Of a stretch of DNA of 64,000 bases, positions 42,126 through 64,000 are shown piece after piece. The notes under the pieces are model-generated. The model had not been told where the DNA came from. It saw only the letters and a program-made list of their open reading frames with translations, and made no database searches. Source of the stretch: a bacterium (GTDB taxonomy: Bacteria > JAAXHH01). The stretch's first letter is position 1. Every line of letters begins with the position of its first letter. The DNA lies in contig OY843748.1 of assembly GCA_963693015.1 (NCBI GenBank), forward strand, positions 3,651,059 through 3,715,058. Reading direction: 5' to 3'. Both the position numbers and the translations under genes were made by a program.

Positions 42126-42291
42126 TTGTAAGGGAAAGCAACCGAGAGACTTAGTTCGCTATAAATGATGAAATTGACTTCGAGAATACAATCTCCTCTT
42201 CGACTGAAGAACATAAGACAAAGAAGAAATGCTCCAGCGCAATCTCAGACTTTTTAAAGTACTATCGGGTCTAAAGTAAAGGGGCAGTCCG

Positions 42292-44435: not shown

Positions 44436-45716
44436 ATGATACGGCCGGGCGCTGAATCGTTGCGGAAGATCGCGGTCATCGGACAGGGAACCGCGGGCTC
44501 CCTGGCGGCCGCCAGTGTAACGCGTCTTCTCTCCGACGACGACCACGAACTGCATCACATCTACGACTCGCGCATTCCGGTCATCGGCGTGGGCGAAGGC
44601 AGTTGGCCGAGTCTGGTACAGGAACTGCACCAGCTGACGAATCTGCCCCACGCAACCGTCCAGCGGCGCTTGAACGGAACCCGCAAGTACGGCGTCGCAT
44701 TCGAGGGATGGGGGTGCCGCAGCCGGGATTTCACCCACTACTTCACGCCGCAACAGGTATCCTATGCCTACCATTTGTCCGCCGACGTGCTGGCGGAGCT
44801 GTTGCGCGAAAGCACGCGCGCGCGCCACGTCGACGCGAACGTGCGCGACATCAAAACCCTGGAGGACGGCGCGCAAGTCGAGTTCGACGGCCGGGCGCCG
44901 GAACGCTACGACCTGGTCTTCGATGCGCGCGGATTCCCGAAAGAACTCCATCCCGACCGGCACATCGACATTTCCTTCATTCCCACCAATACGGCCGTCA
45001 TCCGGCGCTGCCCGGCCGTCATCGCGGAAGAGCGGGACGGGCCGGTCGTGAAGCATACCTACACCCGTGCCGTTGCACGTCCCCACGGCTGGATATTCGT
45101 CATTCCGCTGACGGTGCACACCTCCTACGGGTACATCTTCAACCGCGATATATCCAGCCTCGAAGAAGTCGAATCGGACTTCGACGCCTTCCTTGAAGCC
45201 GATGGCGTGCCGGAATTCGAGCAGCGCGCCGTCATTCCGTTTCCCAACTTCATCCATCGCCGGATCTACGATGGCGCCGTGGCCCGCGTTGGCAACGCGG
45301 CGGCCTTCATGGAGCCCCTGGAGGCCACGGCGATCGTATCTGCCCAGCTGCAAATCGGGATGGTGTTGCAGACGCGTCTGAACCGGCCGGCAGAGCATCT
45401 CGCGCCCGACGCGCCGGTGGTCAACCGGTTTCTCGTCGACAACATGCTCTGCTACGGCCTGTTCGTCGGCTGGCACTATTGCCGTGGCTCCAGGTACGAC
45501 ACCACGTTCTGGCGTCACGCCCGAAACGACGTGTGGCCCCGTCACCGCGACGCGGCAGCGCCCGAGGCGGTGGATTGCGCCGCACTCGGCAAATTCGATG
45601 GGATGTTCGAGCTACTGAATCAACCGGTCATCGACAAATCGGATTGGGACCGGATGTGCGCGGTACCGCTTACCAGCTACGCCCAGGTGTCCCAGGGGCT
45701 GGGCTGCCAAAAGTGA
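44436..45716 (+). CDS. flavin-dependent halogenase (tryptophan-halogenase family, PF04820-like)
   Basis: N-terminal KIAVIGQGTAGSLAA (GxGxxG) and the GWIFVIPL motif (the WxWxIP signature of FADH2-dependent halogenases). Size is about 426 aa. Confidence 0.8.
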   Translation: MIRPGAESLRKIAVIGQGTAGSLAAASVTRLLSDDDHELHHIYDSRIPVIGVGEGSWPSLVQELHQLTNLPHATVQRRLNGTRKYGVAFEGWGCRSRDFTHYFTPQQVSYAYHLSADVLAELLRESTRARHVDANVRDIKTLEDGAQVEFDGRAPERYDLVFDARGFPKELHPDRHIDISFIPTNTAVIRRCPAVIAEERDGPVVKHTYTRAVARPHGWIFVIPLTVHTSYGYIFNRDISSLEEVESDFDAFLEADGVPEFEQRAVIPFPNFIHRRIYDGAVARVGNAAAFMEPLEATAIVSAQLQIGMVLQTRLNRPAEHLAPDAPVVNRFLVDNMLCYGLFVGWHYCRGSRYDTTFWRHARNDVWPRHRDAAAPEAVDCAALGKFDGMFELLNQPVIDKSDWDRMCAVPLTSYAQVSQGLGCQK

Positions 45717-45809: not shown

Positions 45810-46514
45810 GTGTTCAACAATCCATTAAACTCATTCCATGATACCGTTGCCGAAGCGAAGGAAGAGCGGGAACAGCTCGACCGGTTGCTGACGATTTCCA
45901 CGCCGCGGGAGCGTCTGCTCGTCGTCGCGATCGCGGTTGTGCTGTGCGTCACGCTGGCATGGCTTTTCTATGGCAGCGTAGCGCATAGTATTGCGGTGGA
46001 CGGCGTACTGTCCGCATCCGGGCTAGTCGAAGCCCCGTCCGGTCAAGTCGAAGTCCCGGCCGAGCGGGGCGAAAACGGGTCCGTTCAAGTCGAAGCCCCT
46101 GCCGGGCAAGGCGAAAAATCGACCGTTCAAGTCGAAGCCCCTGCCGGGCAAGGCGAAAAATCGACCGTTCAAGTCGAAGCCCCGGCCGAAGGCAGCCGGT
46201 CCGTGCAGGCCCTCGCCTGGATCGACGGCGGTATCGCGCCGCAGATCGAAGCCGGGATGCCGGTGGTGATCGAGCCGGATCCGGCAGATGGAGAACCCGG
46301 CGCGCTGGGCGGAACGGTCCGGGCGATCTCCGCCGTGCCCTTTGCCGGGGCGCTGGCGGCCTTCGAATCCGGGGCGCCGGCGTCCGTGCACCGTATCGAT
46401 ATCGCCCTCGAAGAGAGTCTTGATCCGGATTCCCTTGCGGGCAGGAAATGCCGGATCGTCATCGAGCTGGGCAGGCAATCTCCGATCACGCTGTTTCGAA
46501 TGAGGCGGCCATAG
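45810..46514 (+). CDS. HlyD-like membrane-fusion/secretion protein, unusually short (NHLM bacteriocin-system type)
   Basis: Cytoplasmic N-terminus, a single TM (LLVVAIAVVLCVTLAWLFYG) and a C-terminal beta-rich region. The coiled-coil region is replaced by VQVEAPAGQGEKST repeats. Start is a GTG. Confidence 0.55.
   Translation: MFNNPLNSFHDTVAEAKEEREQLDRLLTISTPRERLLVVAIAVVLCVTLAWLFYGSVAHSIAVDGVLSASGLVEAPSGQVEVPAERGENGSVQVEAPAGQGEKSTVQVEAPAGQGEKSTVQVEAPAEGSRSVQALAWIDGGIAPQIEAGMPVVIEPDPADGEPGALGGTVRAISAVPFAGALAAFESGAPASVHRIDIALEESLDPDSLAGRKCRIVIELGRQSPITLFRMRRP
46039..46206. repeat. 42-bp tandem repeat x4 (two perfect copies) encoding (S)VQVEAPAGQGEKST
   Basis: Seen directly. Perfect copies are 46081-46122 and 46123-46164. 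Confidence 0.85.
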
Positions 46515-46588: not shown

Positions 46589-48802
46589 ATGTCGACGAGC
46601 ACCTCCAGGGGAGCCAGAGGCAAGGCCTCCTCGGATAAATCAGACCAGCGGGTAACCACGCCGATTCTGTTGCAGATGCACGCTTCAGAATGCGGCGCCG
46701 CCTGTCTGGGCATCGTACTGGCCCACTTCGGGAGATGGGTACCGCTTACCGAACTGCGCGAGAAATGCGAGGTGAGCCGGGACGGCAGCAGCGCCGCAAG
46801 CATCCTGCGTGCCTCCAGGCACTATGGGCTCGAATGCAACGGGCTCAGCGTACGCGTCGATCAACTGCACATGCTGCCGTTGCCCCTGATCCTGTTCTGG
46901 CAGTTCAGCCATTTCGTCGTCCTCGAGGGATTCGATGGCCGTAACTTCTACCTCAACGACCCTGCCACGGGACGCCGCCGCCTTTCCGCCGAAGAGTTCG
47001 AGTCGGGCTACAGCGGCATAGCGCTTCGCTTCAAGCGCGGCAAAGACTTCGAGTCCGGTGGCGAGCAGCCCGACTTGTTCCGGCAACTGGGCGCCTTGCT
47101 CGCCGGATCGTGGAGATCGCTTGCCGGGGTGTTTGCCTGCGGACTCATGTTGACGTTGCTGACGCTGATCATTCCCGCGTCGATCGGTGCCTTCGTCGAC
47201 GACGTCATGGAAACGCAAGGGGCCTGGGGCGGTTTGGTGACCGCCCTGCTTGGCGGCGGCGCCCTGGTATACGTCCTTTCCCTGCTCAAGAACCGGTTCC
47301 TCAAGCGGCTCGCGGTCAGGGTGTCGGTGACCGGCTACAGCCGCGGGATGTCGCGGCTGCTGCGGTTGCCGGTGGAGTTTTTCGAACACAGGCTGACGGG
47401 CGATCTGACCGACCGGGTCTCGTCCACCGACCGGATCGCGAAGAACCTGGCGGACCAGTTCCTGGTGCTCATCATCGACGTGGCCATGAGCCTGGTGTTC
47501 CTCGCGGCGATGTTCGCCTTCGACGTCCTGCTCACGCTGATCGTGCTTTTGCTGGCGCTGCTGCACGGTCTGCTGGCCCACTTCCTCAACGCCCTTCGGG
47601 CCGTTCGAAGTCAGGCGATGCGGCGCGAGCAGGGACTGCTGATCGGCCTCGGCATGCAGATGCTGAGTCACGCCGACAATCTGCGCATGACGGGCGCGGA
47701 CGATCGGTTTTTCTCGCGCTGGAGCGGTCAACAGGCCCGCGAACTGCGCGCGCGCCAGCTCTATGCCGAACTGGGCGCCGTCAATACCTCGCTTCCGGGC
47801 CTGGTCGACGCCCTGCGCAGCGCGGCGATACTCGCCATCGGCGGCAGCATGGTCCTGAACGGAGCCATGACCCTGGGGACGCTGGTCGCCTTCTACATCC
47901 TGGCGGAGATGTTCCTGACGCCCGTCGAGCGCTTCCTGGCCTTCGCCGAAAACCGCCAGGCGCTCGAAACCGATCTGCAACGACTCGAGGACGTCTCCAG
48001 GACCGATGAAGATCCCGTTTTCAGCCGCAGAAGCCAGGAGTCGGAATCGGTCCCCACGTTCAACGGCCGGCTCCAACTCGCGGGCCAGCTCGAACTGCGG
48101 AACGTCACCTTCGGTTTCAACAGGAGCCGGCCGCCCCTGATAAAGGACTTCAACCTCGTGATCAAGCCGGGACAGCGGGTCGCCGTGGTCGGTCCCAGCG
48201 GTTCCGGCAAGTCGACGCTGGCGCGGCTGGTTTCGGGGGTCTATCAGCCCTGGTCGGGCGAAATCCTGTTCGACGAGGGCCATCTGCGGGATCAGATCCC
48301 GGAGGAAGTGCTGCGGCAGTCCATATCCATGGTGGATCAGGAGGTCGTGCTCTTCTCCGCGTCCCTGCGCGACAATATCACGCTGTGGAACCCGGCCGTT
48401 CCGGATGAAGTCCTCTTCGCCGCGACGCGGGACGCCCGGATCCACGACGAAATCCTGGTCAGACCGCAGGGATACGCGTCCCTCGTCGAAGAAGGCGGGG
48501 CGAATTTCAGCGGCGGCCAGCGGCAACGGCTGGAAATCGCCCGCGCGCTGGTGGGGAACCCGACGGTGCTCATTCTGGACGAGGCCACCAGCGCCCTCGA
48601 TGCCGCGACGGAGGAATACGTCGACGATGCCCTGCGGCGTCGCGGCGTCACCTGCCTGATCGTGGCGCACCGGCTGAGCACCGTGCGGGACTGCGATGAG
48701 ATCATCGTGCTCGACAAAGGCGCCACCGTGCAACGCGGCACGCACGACGAGTTGATCGCGGATCGGAACGGCGCCTACTACAACCTGGTCAGATCGAACT
48801 GA
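46589..48802 (+). CDS. peptidase-C39 domain ABC exporter (double-glycine leader-cleaving bacteriocin/RiPP transporter)
   Basis: N-terminal QMHASECGAACLGIVL (C39 catalytic Cys) and HFVVLEGFDG (His). Six TM helices, Walker A GPSGSGKST and signature LSGGQRQRLEIARAL. Confidence 0.85.
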   Translation: MSTSTSRGARGKASSDKSDQRVTTPILLQMHASECGAACLGIVLAHFGRWVPLTELREKCEVSRDGSSAASILRASRHYGLECNGLSVRVDQLHMLPLPLILFWQFSHFVVLEGFDGRNFYLNDPATGRRRLSAEEFESGYSGIALRFKRGKDFESGGEQPDLFRQLGALLAGSWRSLAGVFACGLMLTLLTLIIPASIGAFVDDVMETQGAWGGLVTALLGGGALVYVLSLLKNRFLKRLAVRVSVTGYSRGMSRLLRLPVEFFEHRLTGDLTDRVSSTDRIAKNLADQFLVLIIDVAMSLVFLAAMFAFDVLLTLIVLLLALLHGLLAHFLNALRAVRSQAMRREQGLLIGLGMQMLSHADNLRMTGADDRFFSRWSGQQARELRARQLYAELGAVNTSLPGLVDALRSAAILAIGGSMVLNGAMTLGTLVAFYILAEMFLTPVERFLAFAENRQALETDLQRLEDVSRTDEDPVFSRRSQESESVPTFNGRLQLAGQLELRNVTFGFNRSRPPLIKDFNLVIKPGQRVAVVGPSGSGKSTLARLVSGVYQPWSGEILFDEGHLRDQIPEEVLRQSISMVDQEVVLFSASLRDNITLWNPAVPDEVLFAATRDARIHDEILVRPQGYASLVEEGGANFSGGQRQRLEIARALVGNPTVLILDEATSALDAATEEYVDDALRRRGVTCLIVAHRLSTVRDCDEIIVLDKGATVQRGTHDELIADRNGAYYNLVRSN

Positions 48803-48830
48803 CGCGGCAAACGGAGCCGGAATACAGACC

Positions 48831-51797: not shown

Positions 51798-51851
51798 TCC
51801 GATTACGAGGATGACGGCCTGGCGGCAAACGCGCGCCTTCGGCCCGGACCC

Positions 51852-53168
51852 GTGAAAACGGAGTGGAAAACGATGAAGAAGCCCTTTGACGTGACGGGTT
51901 ACCTGCAGTCGCGTGCCGACGACGACCACGACTTCCGGGAACGTCTTCTCGCCAGGCCCAGGGAAACCATCGAAGAGGAATTCGGCGTGACGATGGCCAG
52001 AGACCATGAGATTCACGTCCACGAAGAATCCTATGCTTCGACGCACGTTGTCCTGCCGCCGCGTAGCAAATACACCAAGGCGGAACAGGAAGAAGCGAGA
52101 ACCGGCGCGGCCTCGCTCGAGTTCCTTCGCAAGACGATGTCCGATCCCGCGCCGCCCCTGCGTCCGCCCGCGGGTGAAGGGGAAAGCGTTTCCGGATTCT
52201 CCGGTACCCCCGAGGCGCTTGCAGACGCGGCCAGAGAGCGCATCCGCCGCGGCCTCGTCTTCCTGGAATCCGCCATAGACGAAAGGGGCGCCTGGCACTG
52301 TATCCGATTCAACGTGGGCGACCCGAATATCCCGCGGCATTTCGAAAGACCCGCCTTCATATCGGCTTACTGCGTCCTTGCCCTGGAGTATTGCCGGGAG
52401 GCGCGGGCCCGGTCCATCTGCGCCGCGGCCAGGGCGTATCTTGCCGACACCATCGAATACCCCGGATTCTGGCGCTATTACCGCCATCTGCCCCAGGATC
52501 TCGACAGCACCACGCTTTCTTCGCTTGTGATTGGAACGCACCCCTGGATCCTGCTGGAGCGAAACGTTCCGCGGATACTGGCGAATCGCGACGGGGAAGG
52601 CCGTTTCATGACCTGGGTGCTGACGGAAGACGAACCCGACGTCGTGTCGCGCTTTCGCATCGAAGCCGACCCCGTCGTCAATGCGAACGTCATCGCCTAT
52701 CTCGGCGACCGCCCGGAAACCAGGGAAGCGCAGCGATGGCTGGAAGCGCTGGTAGCCGAAGGCGATCTCGCGGGGTCGTCCAAATGGTATCCCGACGAGG
52801 TGGCCATCTACTATGCGATCGCCCGCGCCATGGGTCGCGCCGAGCCCGCGCTGAGTGGCCTGCGCCCGGTACTCGCGGACCGTGTCCTCGGCTTGCAGGA
52901 CGACAGTGGAGATTTCGGCAACGTCCTTCAGACCGCCCAGGCCGTGTCGGTGCTCCACGAAGTCGGACGCCTTGACCGCATCGACGCGAAACGCCAGGCG
53001 GAAAGACTCTTATGTTCCCAGCGCGAGGACGGCAGCTGGCCGGAACTCCTCGCCTTTGGAGACCAATCGTTGAAGTGGGGCGCAGTAGGACAGATCGGAC
53101 ACGGATCCGAAGCCGTGACCTCTGCGTTCTGTATCGAAGCGCTCGAGCGCCTCGTCACGTACCTGTGA
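51852..53168 (+). CDS. NHLP-type leader domain fused to prenyltransferase/terpene-cyclase-like alpha/alpha-toroid domain
   Basis: Residues 20-70 (DHDFRERLLARPRETIEEEFGVTMARDHEIHVHEESYASTHVVLPP) align position-by-position with the precursor at 59393-59644 and with the NHLP consensus. The C-terminal 350 aa carry QxxDGSW-like repeats (QREDGSWPE, LQDDSGDFGN, NRDGEGRF). Confidence 0.6.
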   Translation: MKTEWKTMKKPFDVTGYLQSRADDDHDFRERLLARPRETIEEEFGVTMARDHEIHVHEESYASTHVVLPPRSKYTKAEQEEARTGAASLEFLRKTMSDPAPPLRPPAGEGESVSGFSGTPEALADAARERIRRGLVFLESAIDERGAWHCIRFNVGDPNIPRHFERPAFISAYCVLALEYCREARARSICAAARAYLADTIEYPGFWRYYRHLPQDLDSTTLSSLVIGTHPWILLERNVPRILANRDGEGRFMTWVLTEDEPDVVSRFRIEADPVVNANVIAYLGDRPETREAQRWLEALVAEGDLAGSSKWYPDEVAIYYAIARAMGRAEPALSGLRPVLADRVLGLQDDSGDFGNVLQTAQAVSVLHEVGRLDRIDAKRQAERLLCSQREDGSWPELLAFGDQSLKWGAVGQIGHGSEAVTSAFCIEALERLVTYL

Positions 53169-53253
53169 ACGTGAATCCTGCCGGTCCGGGAATCCCGCGA
53201 CGAGATAACTTCCCGCGTAGGTGTTCGATTATGCTTACTAAGGAGGTGTTACC

Positions 53254-55653
53254 ATGTCACAGCACAGTTCTGCGGTAATCACCGGCGCCGATCCGGGCAA
53301 CGCCGACGCCACGCGGCAGATCGAACCGTCCATGCTGACGGCCCTCCCCCATTATCTGCCGCTCGGCGTCTTTCCCTTGATCATCCTCGCCGCGCTGAAT
53401 GGCGGCTGGTGGTTGCTGCCGCCCATCGTCTTCATGAGCCTTTCCTGGTCCTTCGACCGGGTATTCGGCCGCGACGGACGCAACATGGATCCGTGGAGCA
53501 CGCCGAAACACCGGCTGATCTGGCACAATCTCCCGGTCTGGACTTGGGCGTTCCTGTGGCCGCCGACGCTCATTTTCGGCGTCTGGCAGATCCTGGTGGC
53601 GGGTCAGTTCGCTCTGTGGGAAAATGCGCTGCTGGCGATCGTACTGACGATGGAAGCCCAGGCCGTATTCGTCGTCGGCCACGAACTGATCCACCGGCGC
53701 ACGTCCTGGGAACGCCGGATCGGCGAATTCCTGCTTTCCTCCTGTTCCTATCCGCAGTATGCCACGGAACACGTGTATATCCATCACGCGCTGGTCGGCA
53801 CGCCCCACGACGTGGGGTCCGCGCCAAAGGGCGAGAGTTTCTGGAAATACATGCCCAAGGAAATCATCAGCAACCTCGTCAATTCCTGGGAAGTCGCAAA
53901 AGATCGCCTTGGGCGCCGCCGCCTGACCATGTGGCATTACAGCAATCCCTTCTGGCGCTACGGCATCGGGGTCGCCTTCTGGTACGGTCTGGTTTTCTGG
54001 ATGGGCGGCATATGGGCCGTTCCGGTCTTTGCCTTCCTCGGCCTTTCCTGCGTCTTTTCCATGAAGATCAGCAATTACTTCCAGCACTACGGCCTGCGGC
54101 GGGTCCGCCTCGAAAACGGCCGCTGGGAGAAGATCATGCCACGGCATTCCTGGAGCGCGGACTGGAAGTTCAGCAACTGGATGCTGTTCAACGCCCAGCG
54201 CCACGCGGATCATCACGCCGTGGCGTCCCGCCAGTATCCCCTGCTCCAGGTCGGCAGCCACGACGAATCGCCGGAACTGCCGGGCACCTACGCCGATATG
54301 ATGAACATCGTCCTGCGGCCCAAATGCTGGTTCGAGAAGATGGACCCGCTGGTAGACCAGTGGCGGAAGCACTTCTACCCGGATATCGAGGACTGGAGTC
54401 CCTACGACAGCCCGCTTGCCGCCGCGCGGCCCGACGCCTTCGACGCGATCGTCGAGATCTTCGGCGCCGCCCCGCGGCTCGCGAAACGGATCGAGCAGAA
54501 CCCGGAACTGCTGGACAACCTGCAGGACCAGGAATTCCTCGATCTCGACCTGCCGAAGGGATTCGGGGAGGATGAAGAGTTCGAAGCGATCGCGCGGCGC
54601 GGACTTGCGAGAGTGTACTGGACGTACGAAATGGGCGTTCGGGAAATGAAGGACCTGATCGTCGAGCTGCCCGTGGTCGATGCCGGGGAAACCGCTGAGA
54701 TCGTGCGGAACTGGTCGAACGACAGGGCGTTCCAGATCGGCATGCACGTGGTGCGGGGCAACCTGTTGCCGGCGGAAGCGGGGACCGCGCTGTCGAATCT
54801 GGCCGAAGCGTCGATTTCGACCGTGCTTGCCTCCGTGGTTGCGGATTTTACCGAGCGGTACGGATCGCAGAGCGTGGGTGACGTCGCCGCGGTCTTCCTG
54901 GGCGACCTGGCCAGCCGCGAGGCATATCCCGGCATTGCGATGGATATGATGTTTGTCCATGACGGCCGGGAGTCCGGCGAGAACGAACGCATGTGCCGGA
55001 GTTTCCGAAAGGCCCTGGCCGACCTGGCGCAGGACAACCTGTTGTTCGCCCCGATCAGCCCCGATCCGGATTCCATTCCCTCGATGCAGCTTTCGGAACT
55101 GGCCGAGGGTGCTGGTGGTTCGACTTCCGGTGAAGTCCCCGTCCTCACCAGGGCGCGGTGCGTGTTCGAGCCTGACGGTTCCGACATGGGCGGCCGCTTC
55201 GACGAGGCGCGCCGTGAAATCCTGGCCGGGAGCGGCGCGAATGAGTCCCTTGTCGCCTGGTCGAGCGAGCAGCCGGAGGACCGCGCCGAGACGAGCGTGT
55301 CCACCTACGCCCGGGTGCGCGGCGGACTGGACGACGTGGAGCGGACCGCGCGATACCTTCAGCTGGTCCATGGCGGAACCCGCCTCGAAGAACCGGCGCC
55401 GACCGCCGCCGCGGTGTTCGAAGCCGCCGGCGACGAGCCGCTGGCGCAGGCGGCGAAACTGTGGCGGGACCTCCAGGGCGCCATGCGCCTGGTCGGCGAG
55501 GACGGATTTGAACTGGAGGAGGCGGGGCCGAAGGTCAGATCGCTTGTCGCGAAGGCCTGCGGGCAGGACGATTTCGATGGGTTGACGGCGGAGGTCGCCG
55601 AAACCGCGTCCCGCGCGGCCGCCCGGATCGAAGCCCTTGTTGCACGCCCATGA
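53254..55653 (+). CDS. AlkB-type integral-membrane di-iron hydroxylase fused to GlnE-like nucleotidyltransferase/helical domain
   Basis: N-terminal 400 aa: HELIHRR, EHVYIHHALVGTPHD, NYFQHYGL and NAQRHADHHAVASRQY, which match AlkB HELGHK / EHNRGHH / NYIEHYGL / LQRHSDHHA. C-terminal 400 aa: NPELLDNLQD ... VAAVFLGDLASREAYPGIAMDMMFVHDG resembles the GlnE adenylyltransferase core (GKLGGRELxxxSDLDLIF), with the second Asp replaced. RBS AAGGAGG upstream. Confidence 0.7.
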   Translation: MSQHSSAVITGADPGNADATRQIEPSMLTALPHYLPLGVFPLIILAALNGGWWLLPPIVFMSLSWSFDRVFGRDGRNMDPWSTPKHRLIWHNLPVWTWAFLWPPTLIFGVWQILVAGQFALWENALLAIVLTMEAQAVFVVGHELIHRRTSWERRIGEFLLSSCSYPQYATEHVYIHHALVGTPHDVGSAPKGESFWKYMPKEIISNLVNSWEVAKDRLGRRRLTMWHYSNPFWRYGIGVAFWYGLVFWMGGIWAVPVFAFLGLSCVFSMKISNYFQHYGLRRVRLENGRWEKIMPRHSWSADWKFSNWMLFNAQRHADHHAVASRQYPLLQVGSHDESPELPGTYADMMNIVLRPKCWFEKMDPLVDQWRKHFYPDIEDWSPYDSPLAAARPDAFDAIVEIFGAAPRLAKRIEQNPELLDNLQDQEFLDLDLPKGFGEDEEFEAIARRGLARVYWTYEMGVREMKDLIVELPVVDAGETAEIVRNWSNDRAFQIGMHVVRGNLLPAEAGTALSNLAEASISTVLASVVADFTERYGSQSVGDVAAVFLGDLASREAYPGIAMDMMFVHDGRESGENERMCRSFRKALADLAQDNLLFAPISPDPDSIPSMQLSELAEGAGGSTSGEVPVLTRARCVFEPDGSDMGGRFDEARREILAGSGANESLVAWSSEQPEDRAETSVSTYARVRGGLDDVERTARYLQLVHGGTRLEEPAPTAAAVFEAAGDEPLAQAAKLWRDLQGAMRLVGEDGFELEEAGPKVRSLVAKACGQDDFDGLTAEVAETASRAAARIEALVARP

Positions 55654-58139
55654 AGGTACCTGCCGGGCAGACGCCGAATCCCCGGATGCCGGGGCAGACG
55701 AAGACGGATTCTCCACGGGGGATATTAACTAGAACGACGCCTGCGGACCGCGGCAGCGTCGAGCTTCCCGCCCTCGCTCCGCACCTGGTCTGCCACGTCA
55801 TCGGCGAGCAGCAGACGCTCCTGGTTTCCGAGTCCTTCGATACGTTGCTGCACGGCGGCCTGTATTGCGACCTGCTTCCGCTTCTCGACGGCCGGCGTCC
55901 ACTGGCCGGGATCGTAGCCGGTCTGGAGGGCCGCCATACGGCCGCCCGTGTCGAAGCGGCCGTTGCTTCGCTCGCCGACAGGGGCTACGTCGTCTCCGCC
56001 GACTACGGCATGGACCGATCCCGGGCGGCCTACTGGTCGTCCCTCGGCGCGTCGCCCCGATGGGCCGAACAACGGCTGTCGGAATCGTCCGTCGCGGTCG
56101 AAGGCGACGACGGCCGGCTGGCATGTCACCTGGAAGCACGCGGCGCCGGTGTGGCGGCAGACGAGCCCGACTCGAGCGGCGCCGGTATGAAGGCAGACGA
56201 GCCCGACTCCAGCGGTGCGGGTGTGGCGGCAGACGAGCCCGACTCCAGCGGCACCGGTATGAAGGCAGATGAGCCCCGGCTCACGGTAATCGTCTGCGAC
56301 GATTATCTCGAACCACGATTCGCAGCGGTGAATCGGCGCCGTCTCGAGAAGAAAGCGCCGTGGACGCTGGTGCGGCCCCGCGGCATGGAGCCGCTGTTTG
56401 GCCCCGTCTTCCGCGCGGACGCAGACGGGCCCTGCTGGGACTGCCTGGCTACCCGGCTGCGCAGCCATAAGGAGGTGCACGATTTCCTGCGCCACGTTGC
56501 CGGCGAGGATGCCGCATTCAAGCCCTTCGCCGCCGAACCCGCGGTGCTGGAAGCGGTCTACGGCCTGATCGCGGCGGAGATCGTCAAATGGCTGGTGCTG
56601 GATGGGGCGGCCCCGATCCACGATCAGGCGATCTCGATGAATGTGGGCGAATTCGCCGTCTCGAAGCATCCGGTCATGCGCCGGCCGCAATGCCCGGCCT
56701 GCGGCGATGAAGCCTTGCATCGTCCGGATCGGCCGCCGGCGCCCCTGCGCCTGAATCCGAGTCCCAAGCCCCATCGCAACAGCGGCGGCGCGCGGGCCGT
56801 GGCGCCGGAAGCCACTCTGGCGAAATACCGCCACCTGGTGAGCCCGGTCAGCGGCGTCGTAACCTGGCTGAAGCGCACGACCAGTGAGCGCGACGCCTGG
56901 CTCCACGTCCACTGGGCCGGAAGCAATCCGGCCATGCGAAGCCGGAGCCTGAGTTCGCTCAGACGCAGCCTCCGCAGCAAGAGCGCCGGCAAGGGCAGCA
57001 CGGGGGAACAGTCCGAGGTCAGCGCCCTCTGCGAGGCGATCGAGCGTTATTCGGGCGCCCGTTGCGGAGACGAAATCCGCATCCGCCGGCGATTCGTCGA
57101 TTTCGCCGAAGAAGACGAGGCCATCCATCCCAACGACGTGCAGCTGTTCAGCGACCATCAGCTGGACAACGCGGAAAGCATCAACGCGGAAGGCCACCCC
57201 TACAACGTCGTCCCGCCGCGCCTCGATCCCGAAGCCGAGCTCGACTGGACCCCCGCGTGGTCGTTCACGCAGGGCCGGCACCGGTATCTGCCGACCTCGA
57301 TGCTCTACGGCACGTCGGCCGAACAGCGCGGAAGTACCGATCTGATCGCCGATTCCAACGGTTGCGCCGCGGGCAACACCCTGGAAGAGGCCATCCTGCA
57401 GGGGTTCTACGAACTGGTCGAGCGCGATGCCTTCGCCATCTGGTGGTACAACGGACTGCGCGTACCCGGAGTCGATCTTGCCAGCTTCGGCGACGAATTC
57501 CTGGCATCTGCCGAGGATTACTACGGCCGCCATGAGCGGGAAGTGTGGATGCTCGACGTGACTTCCGATCTGGGCATTCCGTCCTTCGTCGCCCTCTCGC
57601 GCAGGCCGGACGGGGATACCGAGGATATCATATACGGCGCCGGCGCCCACGCCGACCCGCGCCTGGCGGCCCTGCGCGCGGTCTGTGAGCTGAACCAGTG
57701 CCTTACCTGGTTGCCGCGTCCCGGGGGGAGCGACGGCCCGCCTGGCCGGCCTGACCGGTCTGGCCGACCCATGATCGACGATCCATTTGCCCTTCGCTGG
57801 TGGCAGACGGCTCGAATCGCCGACTGCTCCTGGCTGGTGCCGGAACCGGAGGCGCCGCTCAGGCAAGGCGCCCGGTATCCGGCGATCGAAACCGAGGACA
57901 CGCGCGACGACGTGGAACGATTCAGGGCACTGGTCGAGGCCCGGGGCATGGAGTTCCTGGTGCTGGACCAGACCCGGCCGGATATCGGCATGCCGGTCGT
58001 GCGGGTCATCGTGCCGGGCATGCGCCATTTCTGGGCGCGGTTCGCCCCCGGGCGCCTGTACGACGTGCCCGTCGCCATGGGGCGCCGCGATCGCCCGCTG
58101 GCCGAAGGCGATCTGAATCCCGCACCGGTAATCGCGTAA
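55650..58139 (+). CDS. fused RRE/E1-like docking domain + YcaO cyclodehydratase (thiazole/oxazole-forming, PatD/TruD/SagCD-type)
   Basis: E1-like PLFGPVFRADADGPCWDCLATRLRSH ... CPACG (tetrathiolate Zn site). YcaO: KYRHLVSPVSGVV ... SALCEAIERYSG ... SNGCAAGNTLEEAILQGFYELVERDA, with a Pro-rich C-terminus. The start overlaps the upstream stop (ATGA). Confidence 0.85.
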   Translation: MKVPAGQTPNPRMPGQTKTDSPRGILTRTTPADRGSVELPALAPHLVCHVIGEQQTLLVSESFDTLLHGGLYCDLLPLLDGRRPLAGIVAGLEGRHTAARVEAAVASLADRGYVVSADYGMDRSRAAYWSSLGASPRWAEQRLSESSVAVEGDDGRLACHLEARGAGVAADEPDSSGAGMKADEPDSSGAGVAADEPDSSGTGMKADEPRLTVIVCDDYLEPRFAAVNRRRLEKKAPWTLVRPRGMEPLFGPVFRADADGPCWDCLATRLRSHKEVHDFLRHVAGEDAAFKPFAAEPAVLEAVYGLIAAEIVKWLVLDGAAPIHDQAISMNVGEFAVSKHPVMRRPQCPACGDEALHRPDRPPAPLRLNPSPKPHRNSGGARAVAPEATLAKYRHLVSPVSGVVTWLKRTTSERDAWLHVHWAGSNPAMRSRSLSSLRRSLRSKSAGKGSTGEQSEVSALCEAIERYSGARCGDEIRIRRRFVDFAEEDEAIHPNDVQLFSDHQLDNAESINAEGHPYNVVPPRLDPEAELDWTPAWSFTQGRHRYLPTSMLYGTSAEQRGSTDLIADSNGCAAGNTLEEAILQGFYELVERDAFAIWWYNGLRVPGVDLASFGDEFLASAEDYYGRHEREVWMLDVTSDLGIPSFVALSRRPDGDTEDIIYGAGAHADPRLAALRAVCELNQCLTWLPRPGGSDGPPGRPDRSGRPMIDDPFALRWWQTARIADCSWLVPEPEAPLRQGARYPAIETEDTRDDVERFRALVEARGMEFLVLDQTRPDIGMPVVRVIVPGMRHFWARFAPGRLYDVPVAMGRRDRPLAEGDLNPAPVIA
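56142..56276. repeat. 36-bp tandem repeat x3.75 encoding acidic GAG(V/M)(A/K)ADEPDSS linker between RRE and E1-like domains
   Basis: Seen directly, alternating VAA/MKA variants. Confidence 0.85.
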
Positions 58140-58148
58140 GGAGGCGGA

Positions 58149-59267
58149 ATGAATATCGACGAAGCCGTTCTGCTTACCCAGGATCGTCTCGCCGAAGAGG
58201 GCGGCACGCTGGCGGAATTGCTCGGGCGCTTCAGGAGCCGGGTTTCACCGAGCCTTATCGGGGAGCGGGAATGGACGCTCATACTGGAACGCGCAAAGCA
58301 ACTCCCCATCTCCATGGGCGCCCAGCCCTTCGGCTTTGAATTGCCGCTCCATGACAGCCGGCCCGTGGCGGATTTCGGCGTCTCGCTGGCGAGCGGGAAC
58401 CGGTCAGGCAATTTCTATGAAGCGCGGGCGCGAACGGACGAGACGGACGAGACCGCAAGTGCGGTCGGTCGGCTGTTCGCGGAAATGGAAGCCCGGGACT
58501 CGCCGCTGCGGGAGATCGTGGGACGCAAGCTGATGCTGGAGTATGACATCGGCTCGGCGCACGGGAACAAGGCGTCGCTGCCTGGGTTGTTCCTGCGGCC
58601 CAACGAACGCACCTTGTCCGGTGGCGGAGGCCTTGCGCGTGACGTCGGGATCGTGGTTGACGCCCTGGTTTCCAGCGTCGGCTGGGAAAGGATCGACGCC
58701 GAACGGAAAAACGTCGAGCGGGTCTACCTGGCGCAGCCCGACGACACGCGCATGGATTCCTTCGGCGTATTCCCGTCCCGGGAACGAACGATCCGCCTGG
58801 CGGTCATGGGCTTCAACGGACAGGAGGCCCTCTGTTCTTATCTGGAAGCCACCGACTGGCCGGGGCGTATTTCGGCTGTCGAGTCCGTGATTTCACGCTT
58901 GAAGGAACGGGCGGATATCGTGAGTACGGGTGTGAATATCGACGTGCGGGCAGACGGACTGGGGCCGACGCTCGGCCTTACGCCCATCGTCAAGCAGAGA
59001 TATACGAATGACAGCCGCTACTGGATCGACGGCCAGACCGATTGGGAGCCTATCCTCGAAGCCCTGAGGTATGAGGACTGCGTCGTACCGGAGAAGCTTG
59101 CGGCGCTCGGCGACTGGGCGTCGAAACCGACCACGCTGTTTGGCCGTACCGGCCCCTTCGTCATGTTACGCGGCATACATCACGTAAAGCTGGTCATATC
59201 CGGAAACAGACTGGAGAAGGTCAAGGCCTATCTCTACATGGTGCTTTCCGGAGCGCTCTCGATTTAA
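58149..59267 (+). CDS. hypothetical protein (372 aa), last gene of the RiPP-like operon
   Basis: Protein-like composition, 10-bp gap to the YcaO gene. No motif recognised by eye. Confidence 0.5.
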   Translation: MNIDEAVLLTQDRLAEEGGTLAELLGRFRSRVSPSLIGEREWTLILERAKQLPISMGAQPFGFELPLHDSRPVADFGVSLASGNRSGNFYEARARTDETDETASAVGRLFAEMEARDSPLREIVGRKLMLEYDIGSAHGNKASLPGLFLRPNERTLSGGGGLARDVGIVVDALVSSVGWERIDAERKNVERVYLAQPDDTRMDSFGVFPSRERTIRLAVMGFNGQEALCSYLEATDWPGRISAVESVISRLKERADIVSTGVNIDVRADGLGPTLGLTPIVKQRYTNDSRYWIDGQTDWEPILEALRYEDCVVPEKLAALGDWASKPTTLFGRTGPFVMLRGIHHVKLVISGNRLEKVKAYLYMVLSGALSI

Positions 59268-59298
59268 GCGCTTCAAGCGCAACTTCGGGAACCCGACG

Positions 59299-59337
59299 CA
59301 AAAATCCCCCCGACCAGGTTGATCGGAGGGATTTTTT
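59299..59337. terminator. bidirectional Rho-independent terminator (GC stem flanked by A-tract and T-tract)
   Basis: gcaaaaatcccccc-gaccaggttgatc-ggagggatttttt. It lies between the convergent genes ending at 59267 (+) and 59393 (-). Confidence 0.6.
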
Positions 59338-59392
59338 GACCTGCTCAATCATGCGAACGCCGGGCGTCCGCATGCGAACCGGTGTCTCTGGC

Positions 59393-59644
59393 CTACCAGC
59401 AGCAGCAAAGGCCGGCAGAAACGGCTTCGAGTTGCTCCTCGGTGATATTCGGATCCGGGGGCAACGCGATGTGCACCGTCTGCATATCGCTTTCGTGGAC
59501 CTGGATCGTCATCGATTCAGGCATCGTAATGTCCAACTCCTCGCAAATGACCGACTTCGGATCTGCGATCAATTTCTGCCTGAAATCTGCGTCCAGGGCG
59601 GACTTGTCCACAATCTGCTTCAGCATTTCGTCGCCACTTCTCAT
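59393..59644 (-). CDS. NHLP (nitrile-hydratase leader peptide) family RiPP precursor; predicted core LCCCW
   Basis: MRSGDEMLKQIVDKSALDADFRQKLIADPKSVICEELDITMPESMTIQVHESDMQTVHIALPPDPNITEEQLEAVSAG-LCCCW. The leader matches the NHLP consensus (DxxFRxxLxxDPxxxxxEELxxxxPExxxIxVHExxxxxxHIxLPP ... LExVxAG). Strong RBS AGGGAGG 6 nt upstream, and ATG start. Confidence 0.8.
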   Translation of the reverse strand: MRSGDEMLKQIVDKSALDADFRQKLIADPKSVICEELDITMPESMTIQVHESDMQTVHIALPPDPNITEEQLEAVSAGLCCCW

Positions 59645-59672
59645 GATTCAACCTCCCTTGTCTGGCAACATG

Positions 59673-59690
59673 GCCAAGGCAGCCCTTGGC
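59673..59690. promoter_or_regulatory. inverted repeat GCCAAGG-CAGC-CCTTGGC upstream of the precursor gene
   Basis: Perfect 7-bp arms with a 4-bp spacer, about 30 nt upstream of the precursor start on the minus strand. Candidate operator. Confidence 0.3.
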
Positions 59691-59743
59691 AACAATGACA
59701 AAATAGTACTTAATCAATATATGTCATTTTCGCCGAAAAGTCA

Positions 59744-60400
59744 AGGGATTTAGAGTGATATGCGTATCACGGCCGGTCCTGTTGTCGACGTGGCGCGGCT
59801 TCGACAGTCGTCCCATTCACCCTGTTGAAGGGCGTTCCCGGTTCTTCTTCTTCCTCGACGCGTGGATGACCGAGGCATCCACTACCCTGCCTTTGCGCAC
59901 CGCCAGCCCCGCCTCGGACAGATAGCGCTTCGTCTGCCGGGACAACGCCTGGGCCAGCCCGTGCGCTTCCAGTAAATGGCGGAACTTGCAGATCGTCGTC
60001 TCATCGGGAACGCCGTCTACGTCCACGCCCGCGAAGCGGCGCATCAATTCCACGTCGTAGAGATTGTCCTCCATGGTCGGGTCGCTCAGGCCGTACCATT
60101 GCTGCATGAAGTAGATACGGAGCATCACCTCGGCGCCAATGGGACGCCTGCCGTTGCCGGGCTTCGGATAGTGCTCCAGGATGGGGGCAAGCAGCAGATC
60201 CCAGGGCAATACCGCGTTCATTTCTCCCAGAAAGAGTTCCTTGCGCGTTTTCTTCCCGCGTATGCTCTTCTGATCGGAGGCTATACCGAAAAACTCGTTG
60301 GGTTTCATGACTGAATACGTGACTCAGGATGGTCCGTCGCTCGGGTTGCGTTTACGTCTGCGTTTGTATCGTACGTAAATATAAAGGATTTAGTGTGATC
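59744..60400. mobile_element. IS5-family insertion-sequence remnant flanked by 17-bp imperfect direct repeats
   Basis: agggatttagagtgata (59744-59760) and aaggatttagtgtgatc (60384-60400) bracket a truncated IS5 transposase ORF. Confidence 0.5.
59817..60308 (-). pseudogene. IS5-family transposase, N-terminal 163-aa fragment (DDE domain missing)
   Basis: LPWDLLLAPILEHYPKPGNGRRPIGAEVMLRIYFMQQWYGLSDPTMEDNLYD...TTICKFRHLLEAHGLAQAL closely parallels the IS5 Tnp N-terminus. The ORF stops where the catalytic domain should begin. Confidence 0.7.
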
Positions 60401-60569
60401 AATGTGTGAATAATACGGCTTTTAAGAAGAATATTTCGTGAATTTCTGAGGATCAGGCGCGGACTATGTCCCGGAGCGCCGACAGCAGGCACGTAATCCT
60501 GATCGATCTTCCGCCCGCCCTGCCCGGGTCATGTGGCCGATATTGGAAGGGCGATCTTCGAGAAAGGTC

Positions 60570-62021
60570 TTAGCCAGGGGAGCGCCTCCCCGCCCGACTC
60601 GCCACCGCCCCCACGATCACGTTGAGCGCCAGGCCCAGCACGCCGGCGTGCCAGCCCCAGACCTTGCCCATGCCCGCGAGGGTCAGCCCGGCCGCGAGCA
60701 ACGTGCCCGCGGCCATCCCCGCGGCCGCGCCGGTCGCGTCATAGCGTTTCCACAACACGCCGAGGACGAACAGCGGCGCGGTCTGGATCAGCACCTCCAT
60801 CTTGAGCTCTATGAGTCCCCACAGGGTGAGGTCGGGCGTCAACGCAATGGCGACCAGAATGGCCATGATGGCCCAGGACAGGCGCTTCCCCCACGCGGTG
60901 AGCCGCTCTTCCGGGAGCGATCCCATTCGAAATCGGCCCAGAACGTCCTTGACGAGCAGGGAGGAGAGGCTGAGCAGGACGGAATCGGCCGTCGACATGA
61001 TGGCCGCGACGATGCCGGTGAGGACGAGCACGGTCATGACGTACAGCCAGAGGGATTCCGCCGCCCACACCCTAAGCAGGCGGGGCATGACCTGGTCGGT
61101 GTCGACACCCTCGAGGCCCGATAGCTGGGGGATGGCGAGGATCCCGACCAGGACGACCGCCGATATGGTTACGAGGGGCATGAAGGCCATGAAGGTGAAG
61201 GAACGTTTCAGGCTGCGGGCGCTCCGGGCGGCGAATATGCGTTGGATGGCCTGGGGATAGACGGCGGCGGCAAATCCCACGAGCAGGATCGTGCTGATCC
61301 AGGTTCGGATCGTATCGCCTTGCGGGAGCGCGGCTTTCGCGGGCTGATTGACGATGATCCAGGCCGTTGCTTCGCCGAGGCGGTCGCTGCCCGGCACCAC
61401 GGCGGCCAGCATGCCGAGCAGGCCCACGAAAAGCAGCAGGCCCTGGATGCAGTCGGTCCAGGCCACGGCCTGCATGCCGCCGAGGGTCTCGTAGAACAGG
61501 ATGATGACGGCCAGGACCACCACGCCGGCCCAGAAGGGAATGGCCCCGCCGGACAGGCCGGAGACGATATGGCCCACGGCGAGGAGCTGGGCGAGCAGGT
61601 AGTTGGCAATGGCGACCACGAACAGCACGCCGGCGAAGAAGGTCAGCCCCTTCGATCCGAAACGGTGGGTGATCCAGTCGCCGGGCGTCACGAAGCGCCA
61701 TTGGCGGGACAGGCGATACAGCGCCGGCGCGAAGAGAAGGTAAGCCACCACGATGGCCATCATGAAACCGATGCTCATGATCCAGGCGTAGCCCAGCCGG
61801 TAGGCCTCGCCGGGATAGCCGACGAGCGTGTTGCCGCTGTACTGCGTGGCATAGAGGGTGAAGAAGAGGACCGGCGCGCCCAGGTTCTTGCCCGCCAGGT
61901 AGAAGGAGGACATCGAATTGTCCCGCCGGCGGGCGCGGGCCACGTATCCGAGGACGATCATGAAGACGAGGTACGCGGCCAGGAACAGGAGCGCGCCTGG
62001 GCCGTAGGGCTGTTCCGCCAT
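60570..62021 (-). CDS. sodium:solute symporter (SSS) family transporter
   Basis: 13 TM-like segments, with an N-terminal FYLAGKNLG motif (the SSS 'GR/K' region). Confidence 0.85.
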   Translation of the reverse strand: MAEQPYGPGALLFLAAYLVFMIVLGYVARARRRDNSMSSFYLAGKNLGAPVLFFTLYATQYSGNTLVGYPGEAYRLGYAWIMSIGFMMAIVVAYLLFAPALYRLSRQWRFVTPGDWITHRFGSKGLTFFAGVLFVVAIANYLLAQLLAVGHIVSGLSGGAIPFWAGVVVLAVIILFYETLGGMQAVAWTDCIQGLLLFVGLLGMLAAVVPGSDRLGEATAWIIVNQPAKAALPQGDTIRTWISTILLVGFAAAVYPQAIQRIFAARSARSLKRSFTFMAFMPLVTISAVVLVGILAIPQLSGLEGVDTDQVMPRLLRVWAAESLWLYVMTVLVLTGIVAAIMSTADSVLLSLSSLLVKDVLGRFRMGSLPEERLTAWGKRLSWAIMAILVAIALTPDLTLWGLIELKMEVLIQTAPLFVLGVLWKRYDATGAAAGMAAGTLLAAGLTLAGMGKVWGWHAGVLGLALNVIVGAVASRAGRRSPG

Positions 62022-62132
62022 GATATCCTAACCTCCGGGGCCGCGGGTGCTTGTTTCACCTGCGCGGCCTGAGGCGCACGGGGCGGACGCACGAAGGAAG
62101 GCGTCTGGATCGTGACGCAGGGCGCTCATGGG

Positions 62133-62369
62133 CTAATCGTCCTCCCGCCAGAACCTGTGGATTGCGAAGGCGGTGAAGCACGCGATGGCCAGGCAGACGC
62201 CCAGGCAGATCACGACCCAGTAGGGCACGCCGAACCATATGGGGACCGGTTCGATTTCAGGAAGGTACCAGGGAATCGACAGGGCGAACAGGCCCGTGTA
62301 CACGGCCCATATCCACAGGGGGAATCGGCGACCGGAGATTGGAGGGTTCATGAAGGACCCGTTGTTCAT
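62133..62369 (-). CDS. DUF3311-like small membrane protein (accessory subunit commonly preceding SSS transporters)
   Basis: 78 aa, two TM (WIWAVYTGLFALSIPWY ... VVICLGVCLAIACFTAFAI), immediately upstream of the SSS gene. An alternative start is at 62351. Confidence 0.55.
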   Translation of the reverse strand: MNNGSFMNPPISGRRFPLWIWAVYTGLFALSIPWYLPEIEPVPIWFGVPYWVVICLGVCLAIACFTAFAIHRFWREDD

Positions 62370-63214
62370 ACGCGGACGTATTTGTGCACGAGGTTCTCCA
62401 CGCCTACTTCGCCCACGTAGATATCGCCGTGGCGGTCGACCCAGACGCTGTGGGCGCCGTGGGCCTGATCGACCGGCCCGCCCCTGACGACCCACTGGGC
62501 GATGAGTCTTCCGTCCATGTTCATGATGGTGACCCCGCCGCCCTCGCCCAGGAAGACCGTATCCTCGTCGTCTACGAACAGGCCGCAGGGCGCGGGACGG
62601 CCGGGCCATTCCGCGAGGAAGCTGCCCTCCGAATCGAAGACCTGTATCCGGTTGTTGGTCTCCCGGTCCGCCACCAGCAGCCGTCCGTCGGACGTGGAGA
62701 ATATGTTGTGGGGGAGCGTGAACTTCCCGGGCGCGTCGCCCCGGCCGCCCCAGGTATCGACCAGGTCGCCCGAAGGCGTCATCCGGTGCACGTAACACTG
62801 TCCATAACCGTCGGCGACGTACAGATCGCCGGAAGGCCCTTTGACCGCGCGCGTCGGCATGTTGAAGGGTTTGCCCGGCGCTCCGGTCCGGCCAGGCTCA
62901 CCCAGCGTCTGCAGGAGCGCGCCGTTGGTCGAAAACACCCGGACGGTGTGGTCTCTGCAGTCCGGAATGAAGATCCTGTCCTCGCCGTCGATCCATATCT
63001 CGTGGGGCAGGGCCAGTATGTCGTGACCCCATTCGTTCAACAGGTGGCCGTCCCGGTCGTAGACCACCACGGCGGGATTCGGCTCCCGGTCGACGACGTA
63101 CACGCGGTCCTCCGAATCCACGGCCACGGCCGTGGCGATGCCCAGAGTCCGCTCGGAACCCCATCCGAGCACCTTCTCGTAACAGTAGTCTCCTGATCCC
63201 CAGATCATTTGCAC
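62366..63214 (-). CDS. NHL-repeat six-bladed beta-propeller protein (peptidyl-alpha-hydroxyglycine alpha-amidating lyase-like)
   Basis: Repeated ...G.G.G.F..P.G.A.D.DG.lYVAD..N.RiQvF units in 282 aa. Confidence 0.65.
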   Translation of the reverse strand: MQMIWGSGDYCYEKVLGWGSERTLGIATAVAVDSEDRVYVVDREPNPAVVVYDRDGHLLNEWGHDILALPHEIWIDGEDRIFIPDCRDHTVRVFSTNGALLQTLGEPGRTGAPGKPFNMPTRAVKGPSGDLYVADGYGQCYVHRMTPSGDLVDTWGGRGDAPGKFTLPHNIFSTSDGRLLVADRETNNRIQVFDSEGSFLAEWPGRPAPCGLFVDDEDTVFLGEGGGVTIMNMDGRLIAQWVVRGGPVDQAHGAHSVWVDRHGDIYVGEVGVENLVHKYVRV

Positions 63215-63459
63215 GTCCTCTCAGGAAATGAATGCGGGATTATGCGCTGAGTGCCGGCCCCGACCGGCGAATCCCCGGATGGAACCGATAGGTACAAAGG
63301 TTTTGTCGTGTTCATACCCGAAGTATATACTAAATCCGATCCCGCAACACCGGATATTCGCCGTATCATGAACCGGGTTGCCGGTACGGTCCGGCTTCGG
63401 TATCCCTCACGTCAGCATCATTTGTCCGGTTTCAACTTACAGATGACAGGAGCCATCTC

Positions 63460-64000
63460 ATGGGCGTACTCGACAGTTTTTCCCTACAAGGCCGTATCGC
63501 CGTGGTCACGGGCGGCGCGGGTCCGCAGTTCGGCAGCAGCATCTCCGAAGCCCTGGCCGAAGCGGGGGCGACCGTGGTCGTCGCTTCGAGGGACCTCGAC
63601 AACAACCGGCGGTTCGTCGCCGGACTGAACGAACAGGGTCTCGATGCCCACCCCGAAGCACTCGACATCACGGACACCGACTCGATCAATAGCCTGAAAC
63701 GACGCGTCATGGACCGATTCGGCCGCGCGGACGTCCTGGTCAACAGCGCGGTGGTCGGCCGGGGCGGCGGTTTCGACGAGCAGACCCCCGACTACTGGGC
63801 CGCCAGCGCCCAGGGGAACATGGTGGGTCTCTTCGCCCTGTGCAAGGCCTTCGTGCCGGTCATGGCCGGCCAGGGCGGCGGCAGCGTCATCAACATATCC
63901 AGTATCTACGGCGTCGTGGCCAACGACCCGGGCCTGTACGAGGAGACCGGGATGAAGCAGCCCCCGGACTACACTTTCGTCAAGGGCGGCATGATCAATT
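63460..64000 (+). CDS. short-chain dehydrogenase/reductase (SDR), 3' partial
   Basis: TGGAGPQFGSSISEALAEAGATVVVASR (TGxxxGxG Rossmann motif) and NSAVVG. RBS GACAGGAG upstream. Runs off the window end. Confidence 0.8.
   Translation, partial: MGVLDSFSLQGRIAVVTGGAGPQFGSSISEALAEAGATVVVASRDLDNNRRFVAGLNEQGLDAHPEALDITDTDSINSLKRRVMDRFGRADVLVNSAVVGRGGGFDEQTPDYWAASAQGNMVGLFALCKAFVPVMAGQGGGSVINISSIYGVVANDPGLYEETGMKQPPDYTFVKGGMIN

Follow-up and report, generated by a model that had tools for sequence, protein, structure and literature searches.

The srp ("sponge-derived RiPP proteusin") cluster, which encodes a peptide made by the ribosome and modified after translation (RiPP), was reportedly first described by Nguyen et al. 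in J Am Chem Soc in 2021. Its precursor SrpE joins a leader peptide that resembles nitrile hydratase (NHLP; proteusin type) to the core LCCCW, the cysteines of which are made into thiazolines by the YcaO enzyme SrpC (PMC10858898, PMC10286304). The flavin-dependent halogenase SrpI brominates the indole C6 of the C-terminal Trp; it requires the leader, takes the thiazoline-containing core as a substrate and does not chlorinate (PMC10286304). The modified LCCCW core has been freed in vitro with LahT150, a double-glycine-type C39 protease used as a surrogate (PMC10286304, PMC10858898). In sponge microbiomes, strong transcription has been described for a precursor gene of 252 bp whose product has the core LCCCW and the consensus ITEEQL and which is found in bins of many phyla (bioRxiv 10.1101/2023.06.09.544420). 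Here we describe a 64,000-nucleotide stretch of the bacterial contig OY843748.1 (assembly GCA_963693015.1, positions 3,651,059 to 3,715,058; hereafter the window), in which an open reading frame (ORF) of 83 codons at positions 59393-59644 is very probably srpE, the precursor gene of an srp cluster that extends over about 44.4-59.7 kb of the window.

The srpE gene and its conservation

The peptide encoded by the window is identical to published SrpE at 65 of 83 positions (78%; 95% positives) in a gapless alignment with an identical core, and the halogenase of the same cluster (426 amino acids, aa) shares 79% identity with published SrpI over its full length; the SrpE leader and SrpI sequences used for comparison are those of the PMC10286304 supplement. 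In length and motif the gene matches the 252-bp/ITEEQL precursor of the sponge microbiome preprint (10.1101/2023.06.09.544420). Its translation (83 codons) starts with MRSGDEML and continues as ...LEAVSAGLCCCW, the full sequence being MRSGDEMLKQIVDKSALDADFRQKLIADPKSVICEELDITMPESMTIQVHESDMQTVHIALPPDPNITEEQLEAVSAG-LCCCW. A preliminary description, made from the letters of the window, had placed the ORF at the correct coordinates, but did not state that it lies on the minus strand. The gene and its signals are as follows:

59393..59644, minus strand: srpE, 83-aa proteusin (NHLP) precursor; based on the ORF, TIGR03793, identity to published SrpE, conservation and purifying selection
59411-59644, minus strand: srpE leader, codons 1-78
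59396-59410, minus strand: srpE core LCCCW, followed by the stop codon TAG at 59393-59395
59652-59659, minus strand: Shine-Dalgarno sequence AAGGGAGG, 7 nt before the srpE ATG; direct sequence reading
59744..59716, minus strand: putative sigma-70-like promoter upstream of srpE, TTGACT-17-TATATT, 10/12; consensus match only
About 59300-59337, between the convergent srpE and 372-aa genes: hairpin flanked by A-runs and T-runs, found by folding

The Shine-Dalgarno sequence, the ATG start and the 3' codons CTT TGC TGC TGC TGG TAG are present; the preliminary description had noted a strong Shine-Dalgarno sequence, an ATG and three consecutive TGC codons before TGG and a stop. Its assignment of an NHLP leader is borne out by TIGR03793, which aligns SrpE residues 6-78 with model positions 4-77 of 77 at 63.7 bits (curated cutoff 50.9), and PF02979 (NHase_alpha) matches at 30.4 bits versus 27.2. 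The leader ends in N-I(-12)-T-E-E-Q-L(-7)-E-A-V(-4)-S-A-G / LCCCW, a double-glycine-type site with hydrophobic residues at -4, -7 and -12, and the cleavage boundary marked in the published SrpE supplement (PMC10286304) is the same as in the window peptide. The suggestion that SAG is such a site is in line with the release of the orthologous core by the C39-type LahT150. The brominase binds an L(X)4L motif, which takes the I(X)4L form NITEEQL in the window peptide (SrpE residues 65-71; 59432-59452, minus strand). In the characterised SrpE this segment reads NLTEEQL, and bromination is poorer when its Leu67 is replaced by Ala.

On the minus (srpE) strand the hairpin downstream of the gene has a folding energy of -26.4 kcal/mol (z = -3.3) and on the plus strand one of -17.9 kcal/mol (z = -2.2), and because the fold is stable on both strands it is probably a bidirectional terminator. 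A simple terminator scan missed it because its 9-nt loop exceeds the limit of the scan; folding revealed it. No second copy of srpE was found in the window, the sole other match there being the NHLP-like domain of the 431-aa protein of the cluster (38% identity).

The homologue search and the tabulation of cores that the preliminary description had called for yield a near-invariant core. A search of a large protein collection returned 594 SrpE homologues, and lengths and C-termini were tabulated for the best 120 of them. Exactly 83 aa were found in 117 of these 120, the C-terminus is LCCCW in 110, LSCCW in 8 and LTCCW in 2, the residues before the core are always L-E-A-(I/V)-(S/A)-A-G, and the NITEEQL motif occurs in 87. 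A scan with one genome per species identified 252 species genomes with SrpE relatives, and the loci were compared for the best 80, all of them metagenome-assembled genomes (MAGs) labelled as Latescibacterota, Gemmatimonadota, Nitrospinota, Nitrospirota, Acidobacteriota, Alphaproteobacteria and Gammaproteobacteria. All 80 loci have the ATG start and a stop immediately 3' of the Trp codon. Differences from the window gene fall at codon positions 1, 2 and 3 in the numbers 898, 276 and 2433, and the codon changes comprise 2018 synonymous and 1018 non-synonymous ones. This codon pattern shows that srpE is under purifying selection, and the signal is overwhelmingly above chance. The preliminary description had proposed to regard the ORF as probably fortuitous if homologues were not conserved next to YcaO clusters or if the frame was disrupted in related genomes; of the 80 loci, 72 have a YcaO gene within 10 kb and none has a disrupted frame.

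Cluster organisation and proposed mechanism

Upstream of the convergent srpE, the plus strand carries the following genes:

44436..45716, plus strand: predicted SrpI orthologue, flavin-dependent peptidyl tryptophan-6 brominase; 79% identity to SrpI, PF04820 at 158 bits
45810..46514, plus strand: short HlyD-like secretion adaptor; TIGR03794 match (37 bits) to the N-terminal 53 residues only
46589..48802, plus strand: C39 peptidase-ATP-binding cassette (ABC) exporter (peptidase-containing ABC transporter, PCAT); TIGR03796 at 857.3 bits (cutoff 853.3), PF03412 Peptidase_C39 at 118 bits
48831..51797, plus strand: NHLP-type ABC exporter subunit 2 (permease/ATPase); TIGR03797 at 650.7 bits, below the equivalog cutoff of 709.4
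51873..53168, plus strand: 431-aa protein with a predicted N-terminal NHLP-like domain and a predicted class II terpene-cyclase-like alpha/alpha domain
53254..55653, plus strand: 799-aa fusion of a membrane fatty-acid-desaturase/AlkB-like di-iron part and a GlnE-like nucleotidyltransferase; PF00487 at 91 bits, PF03710 at 26.5 bits
55650..58139, plus strand: SrpC-type cyclodehydratase with a winged-helix/E1-like leader-binding region and YcaO; TIGR03604 at 280.8 bits (cutoff 219), TIGR03882 at 141.2 bits, PF02624 at 310 bits
58149..59267, plus strand: 372-aa protein, predicted ABBA aromatic (indole-type) prenyltransferase fold

The E1-like leader-binding partner and the YcaO domain are thus found on one polypeptide (TIGR03882 and TIGR03604). 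An NHLP export set is present, consisting of the C39-ABC exporter, a second ABC subunit for which TIGR03797 is clearly the best family, and a variant of the HlyD-type adaptor. Within 10 kb of srpE, the best 80 loci carry the 372-aa gene 76 times, the YcaO gene 72 times, the desaturase fusion 65 times and the 431-aa gene 63 times. The halogenase is found in at least 27 of the 80, a lower bound, as in the window it lies 14 kb from srpE and outside the 10-kb range. This distance also qualifies the preliminary description, which had called both modifying enzymes neighbours of the precursor: the term holds for the convergent YcaO gene, two genes away, but not for the halogenase, which lies at the opposite end of the cluster, some 14 kb from srpE. 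Gene order and the convergent orientation of srpE are conserved, with the same layout in contigs L001-L005 and L086. L086 has 97-98% DNA identity to window positions 48138-64000, including an IS5 fragment beside srpE, and the closest record found is the ENA contig PANK22-1_SAMN12291395 scaffold_108, at 97-98% nucleotide identity. Going only by the order of the genes and by srpC, srpE and srpI, which are known, we infer that the 431-aa gene is srpA, the desaturase fusion srpB, the YcaO gene srpC and the 372-aa gene probably srpD. We place the host among sponge- or coral-associated bacteria, its closest named relatives being Latescibacterota and Gemmatimonadota MAGs.

Based on this gene content and on the findings for the orthologous enzymes, we propose the following multistep mechanism, which we consider highly probable together with the srpE assignment, and in which (i) the 252-bp gene, the transcription of which is published, would be translated into the 83-aa peptide; (ii) the 78-residue nitrile-hydratase-like leader would dock on the fused E1-like/YcaO protein at its leader-binding region, and the YcaO domain, using ATP, would cyclodehydrate Cys80, Cys81 and Cys82 to three consecutive thiazolines, as shown for the orthologue; (iii) the halogenase would bind the C-terminal L/I(X)4L motif of the leader (NITEEQL) and brominate C6 of Trp83, the orthologue being leader-dependent and carrying out bromination only; (iv) the C39-peptidase ABC exporter, judging by its family, should cut after Ser-Ala-Gly78 and export the modified pentapeptide. 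Additional tailoring by the 372-aa and 431-aa proteins and by the desaturase/GlnE fusion is likely. The preliminary description had singled out the three adjacent Cys as a substrate for the YcaO enzyme and the C-terminal Trp as the target of the halogenase, and both choices agree with what SrpC and SrpI do in the orthologous system, the window halogenase being the close relative of SrpI noted above.

Two genes of the cluster contain in-frame tandem repeats. In the YcaO gene, a 36-nt repeat at 56140-56276 (plus strand; 3.8 copies) encodes ...SGAGMKADEPDS... and makes the linker that precedes the E1-like domain longer. The YcaO protein has 829 aa in the window, 817 aa in L086 and 772 aa at other loci, so the copy number of the repeat varies. 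In the HlyD-like gene, a 21/42-nt repeat at 46018-46188 (plus strand; about 8 and 3.6 copies) encodes repeated VQVEAPAGQGEKST units. We considered that this gene might be a truncated pseudogene and rejected the idea, as the homologue in locus L040 is equally short (199 aa); the protein is a naturally short variant of about 200 aa.

The cluster is flanked on one side by a truncated IS5-family transposase gene at 59817-60308 (minus strand; 163 aa versus a 285-aa model, DUF772), which is also found in L086. On the other side, directly upstream of the halogenase, positions 37836-44105 (plus strand) have a guanine-cytosine (GC) content that begins at about 50-52%, compared with about 65%, and encode a protein of 1429 aa that matches AAA_22/NACHT (STAND-like ATPase) weakly and below threshold; then, at about 53-59% GC, follows a gene pair for an AAA_21 (AbiEii-like) ATPase and a DUF4276 protein. 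The region looks like an anti-phage defence islet adjoining the biosynthetic cluster.

Caveats to the assignment and alternative explanations

Several points qualify the reading of the locus as an srp cluster that operates as proposed above. The activity of SrpC in E. coli is poor and its products are partly modified (PMC10286304), the mature srp product has never been isolated, and thiazolines and 6-bromo-Trp have been demonstrated only on the S. aurea orthologue and on chimeric substrates. The YcaO protein of the window is called SrpC by family and synteny only. A scan of the cluster ORFs (44.4-59.7 kb only) did not find a SagB-type azoline dehydrogenase dependent on flavin mononucleotide; the absence of such an enzyme among the cluster ORFs is consistent with thiazolines, as in the published product, rather than thiazoles. 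Moreover, the truncated IS5 transposase lies only about 170 bp upstream of srpE. We argue that it is tolerated, because a contig of 97-98% identity from a different sample shows the same arrangement. We found nothing that contradicts the SrpE assignment; in all testable features the window gene belongs to the published SrpE/srp family and is, in this sense, already known.

One could argue that srpE is a fortuitous open frame, antisense to the end of the operon in a GC-rich genome, which encodes nothing: its strand is opposite to that of the biosynthetic operon, and spurious ORFs are common in GC-rich DNA (101 ORFs of at least 40 aa in 14 kb). This explanation is already refuted, and we give it virtually no probability. 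The match to the NHLP model exceeds the curated cutoff, nearly all of the 594 homologues have the same length and core, the start and the stop after Trp are kept in all 80 loci with substitutions biased to third positions, the convergent orientation is conserved, and an orthologue has been expressed and modified experimentally. Only very little probability attaches to the idea that this copy of the cluster is a decaying, non-functional remnant. The IS5 fragment beside srpE, the tandem repeats in the YcaO and HlyD-like genes and the low-GC, defence-like genes just upstream of the halogenase would all suit such decay, but each of the eleven genes of the cluster (srpE plus ten plus-strand genes) has an intact, full-length frame with 60-94% identity to homologues elsewhere, and the repeats are multiples of 3 nt that keep the frame. 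In addition, the short HlyD-like form is normal in its family, the Shine-Dalgarno sequence and promoter-like site of srpE are intact and lie between the gene and the IS fragment, and the 97-98% identical contig from an independent sample has the same layout.

A further alternative, to which we assign a small chance, takes the thiazolines for an artefact of heterologous expression and assumes that CCCW is used otherwise, either as a metal-binding thiolate cluster or as a CaaX-like S-prenylation signal. It draws on the incomplete action of SrpC in E. coli and on the native product never having been seen, as well as on the prenyltransferase fold predicted for the most conserved neighbour; C-C-C-W also formally fits C-a-a-X. 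However, the YcaO protein is of the canonical azoline-forming SagD type with a fused E1-like domain and is found at 72 of the 80 loci, and SrpI accepts the thiazoline-containing core. The LSCCW and LTCCW variants (10 of the best 120) carry Ser or Thr, which can be heterocyclised but not S-prenylated and are poorer metal ligands, and the fold predicted for the 372-aa protein matches soluble ABBA indole prenyltransferases rather than the alpha/alpha CaaX protein prenyltransferases. With these variants and the ABBA rather than alpha/alpha fold, the CaaX-like reading was rejected. Heterocyclisation of the three Cys by the YcaO enzyme, followed by bromination of Trp83, is the use of the core that we consider by far the most probable.

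Accessory proteins and relation to known systems

In 2025, a survey still described the accessory srp genes as having unknown functions (PMC11832590); the founding 2021 paper may already annotate them. The AlphaFold model of the 372-aa protein (predicted local distance difference test score 84.9, predicted template modelling score 0.86) has the ten-strand antiparallel beta-barrel with repeated alpha-beta-beta-alpha units that marks the ABBA fold. Foldseek gives independent agreement, its top 50 matches all being ABBA prenyltransferases, with bacterial Trp dimethylallyltryptophan synthase enzymes first. Identities in the structural alignments are 6-16%. At the sequence level, 50 members of the 372-aa family gave no match at E <= 10 in Pfam, Trp_DMAT, PTase_Orf2 and the cyanobactin prenyltransferase family included; the family profile had no match in the PDB, and nothing was found in NCBIfam. 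Among the many invariant residues of the protein are the Arg, Lys and Tyr residues R126, K127, R150, R211, R213, R216, K347, K359 and Y361. The profile of the 431-aa family matches, in its N-terminal domain, nitrile hydratase alpha subunits and the solved NHLP leader 8tb1; in this family DLDST is invariant and QREDGSW (QW-type) near-invariant. That its NHLP-like domain might be a cleavable export leader is unsupported, as the hydrophobic residues that C39 sites have at -4, -7 and -12 are missing from its conserved ...EEARTGAAS... stretch.

The preliminary description had mentioned in passing that the Trp might be prenylated. At the level of predicted folds this idea is plausible: an indole-prenyltransferase fold is predicted for the conserved, adjacent protein of 372 aa, which lends it unexpected support. 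We tentatively suggest, as a possibility that we regard as somewhat doubtful, that the mature srp product is a peptide-terpenoid hybrid, in which the 372-aa protein would prenylate the core, most plausibly at the indole of 6-bromo-Trp, the 431-aa protein would cyclise the prenyl chain, and the NHLP-like domain of the latter would dock onto the partners of the precursor. If true, the enzyme would contain an imitation of a leader as part of itself, a device of a new type.

As a finding, the window adds little that is new, being one more srpE orthologue from one more symbiont lineage. SrpE, the LCCCW core, the thiazolines and the leader-guided bromination of Trp have been in the literature since 2021, and the brominase already serves as a bioconjugation tool. 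The interpretation in the preliminary description is supported as right, although already in the literature, and its reading of raw sequence recovered the correct biochemistry. The question for the field is the nature of the finished srp molecule, and why symbionts of many phyla keep and strongly express a near-invariant core of five residues. The predicted prenyltransferase-like and terpene-cyclase-like folds of the two accessory proteins offer a testable route to the srp product.

Among described systems, the window cluster shares with the srp cluster (SrpE; PMC10286304, PMC10858898) the 83-aa NHLP precursor at 78% identity, LCCCW, the SAG site, an SrpI-type brominase, YcaO and NHLP-type exporters, as well as the occurrence in MAGs of uncultured symbionts of many phyla. 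It differs from the characterised Smenospongia aurea srp cluster in the motif of the precursor (NITEEQL versus NLTEEQL, the Ile form being that of the majority), in host lineage and in the repeat insertions in two genes; nothing is different in kind. The mpr system of Methylovulum psychrotolerans (Nguyen et al., ACS Chem Biol 2022, via PMC10286304) likewise combines NHLP-leader precursors and a leader L(X)4L motif with azol(in)es formed by YcaO from Cys, Ser and Thr, and MprC and MprD can process the LCCCW core when it is fused to their own leader (PMC10286304). For the Br-LCCCW product obtained with MprC/MprD, an [M+H]+ of 647.06 has been published (PMC10286304 supplement). However, mpr has ten different, longer cores and no halogenase, MprC rejects the SrpE leader, and mpr includes the azoline oxidase MprD, whereas the cluster genes of the window lack an azoline oxidase. 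The mpp cluster of Moorena producens (PMC11791876) has an SrpI-like, leader-dependent Trp brominase that acts on a very short core of 7 aa, but its leader is of the Nif11 type, its rings are made by a LanM lanthionine synthetase rather than by YcaO, and its core is ACWRWSG. Polytheonamide-type proteusins (PoyA) and the NHLP/thiazole/oxazole-modified microcin (TOMM) systems of Haft et al. 2010 (PMC2887384) share the TIGR03793 leader and the TIGR03794, TIGR03796 and TIGR03797 export genes. In contrast to the five-residue core of the window peptide, the cores of these systems are tens of residues long and are tailored by enzymes such as radical SAM epimerases and methyltransferases.
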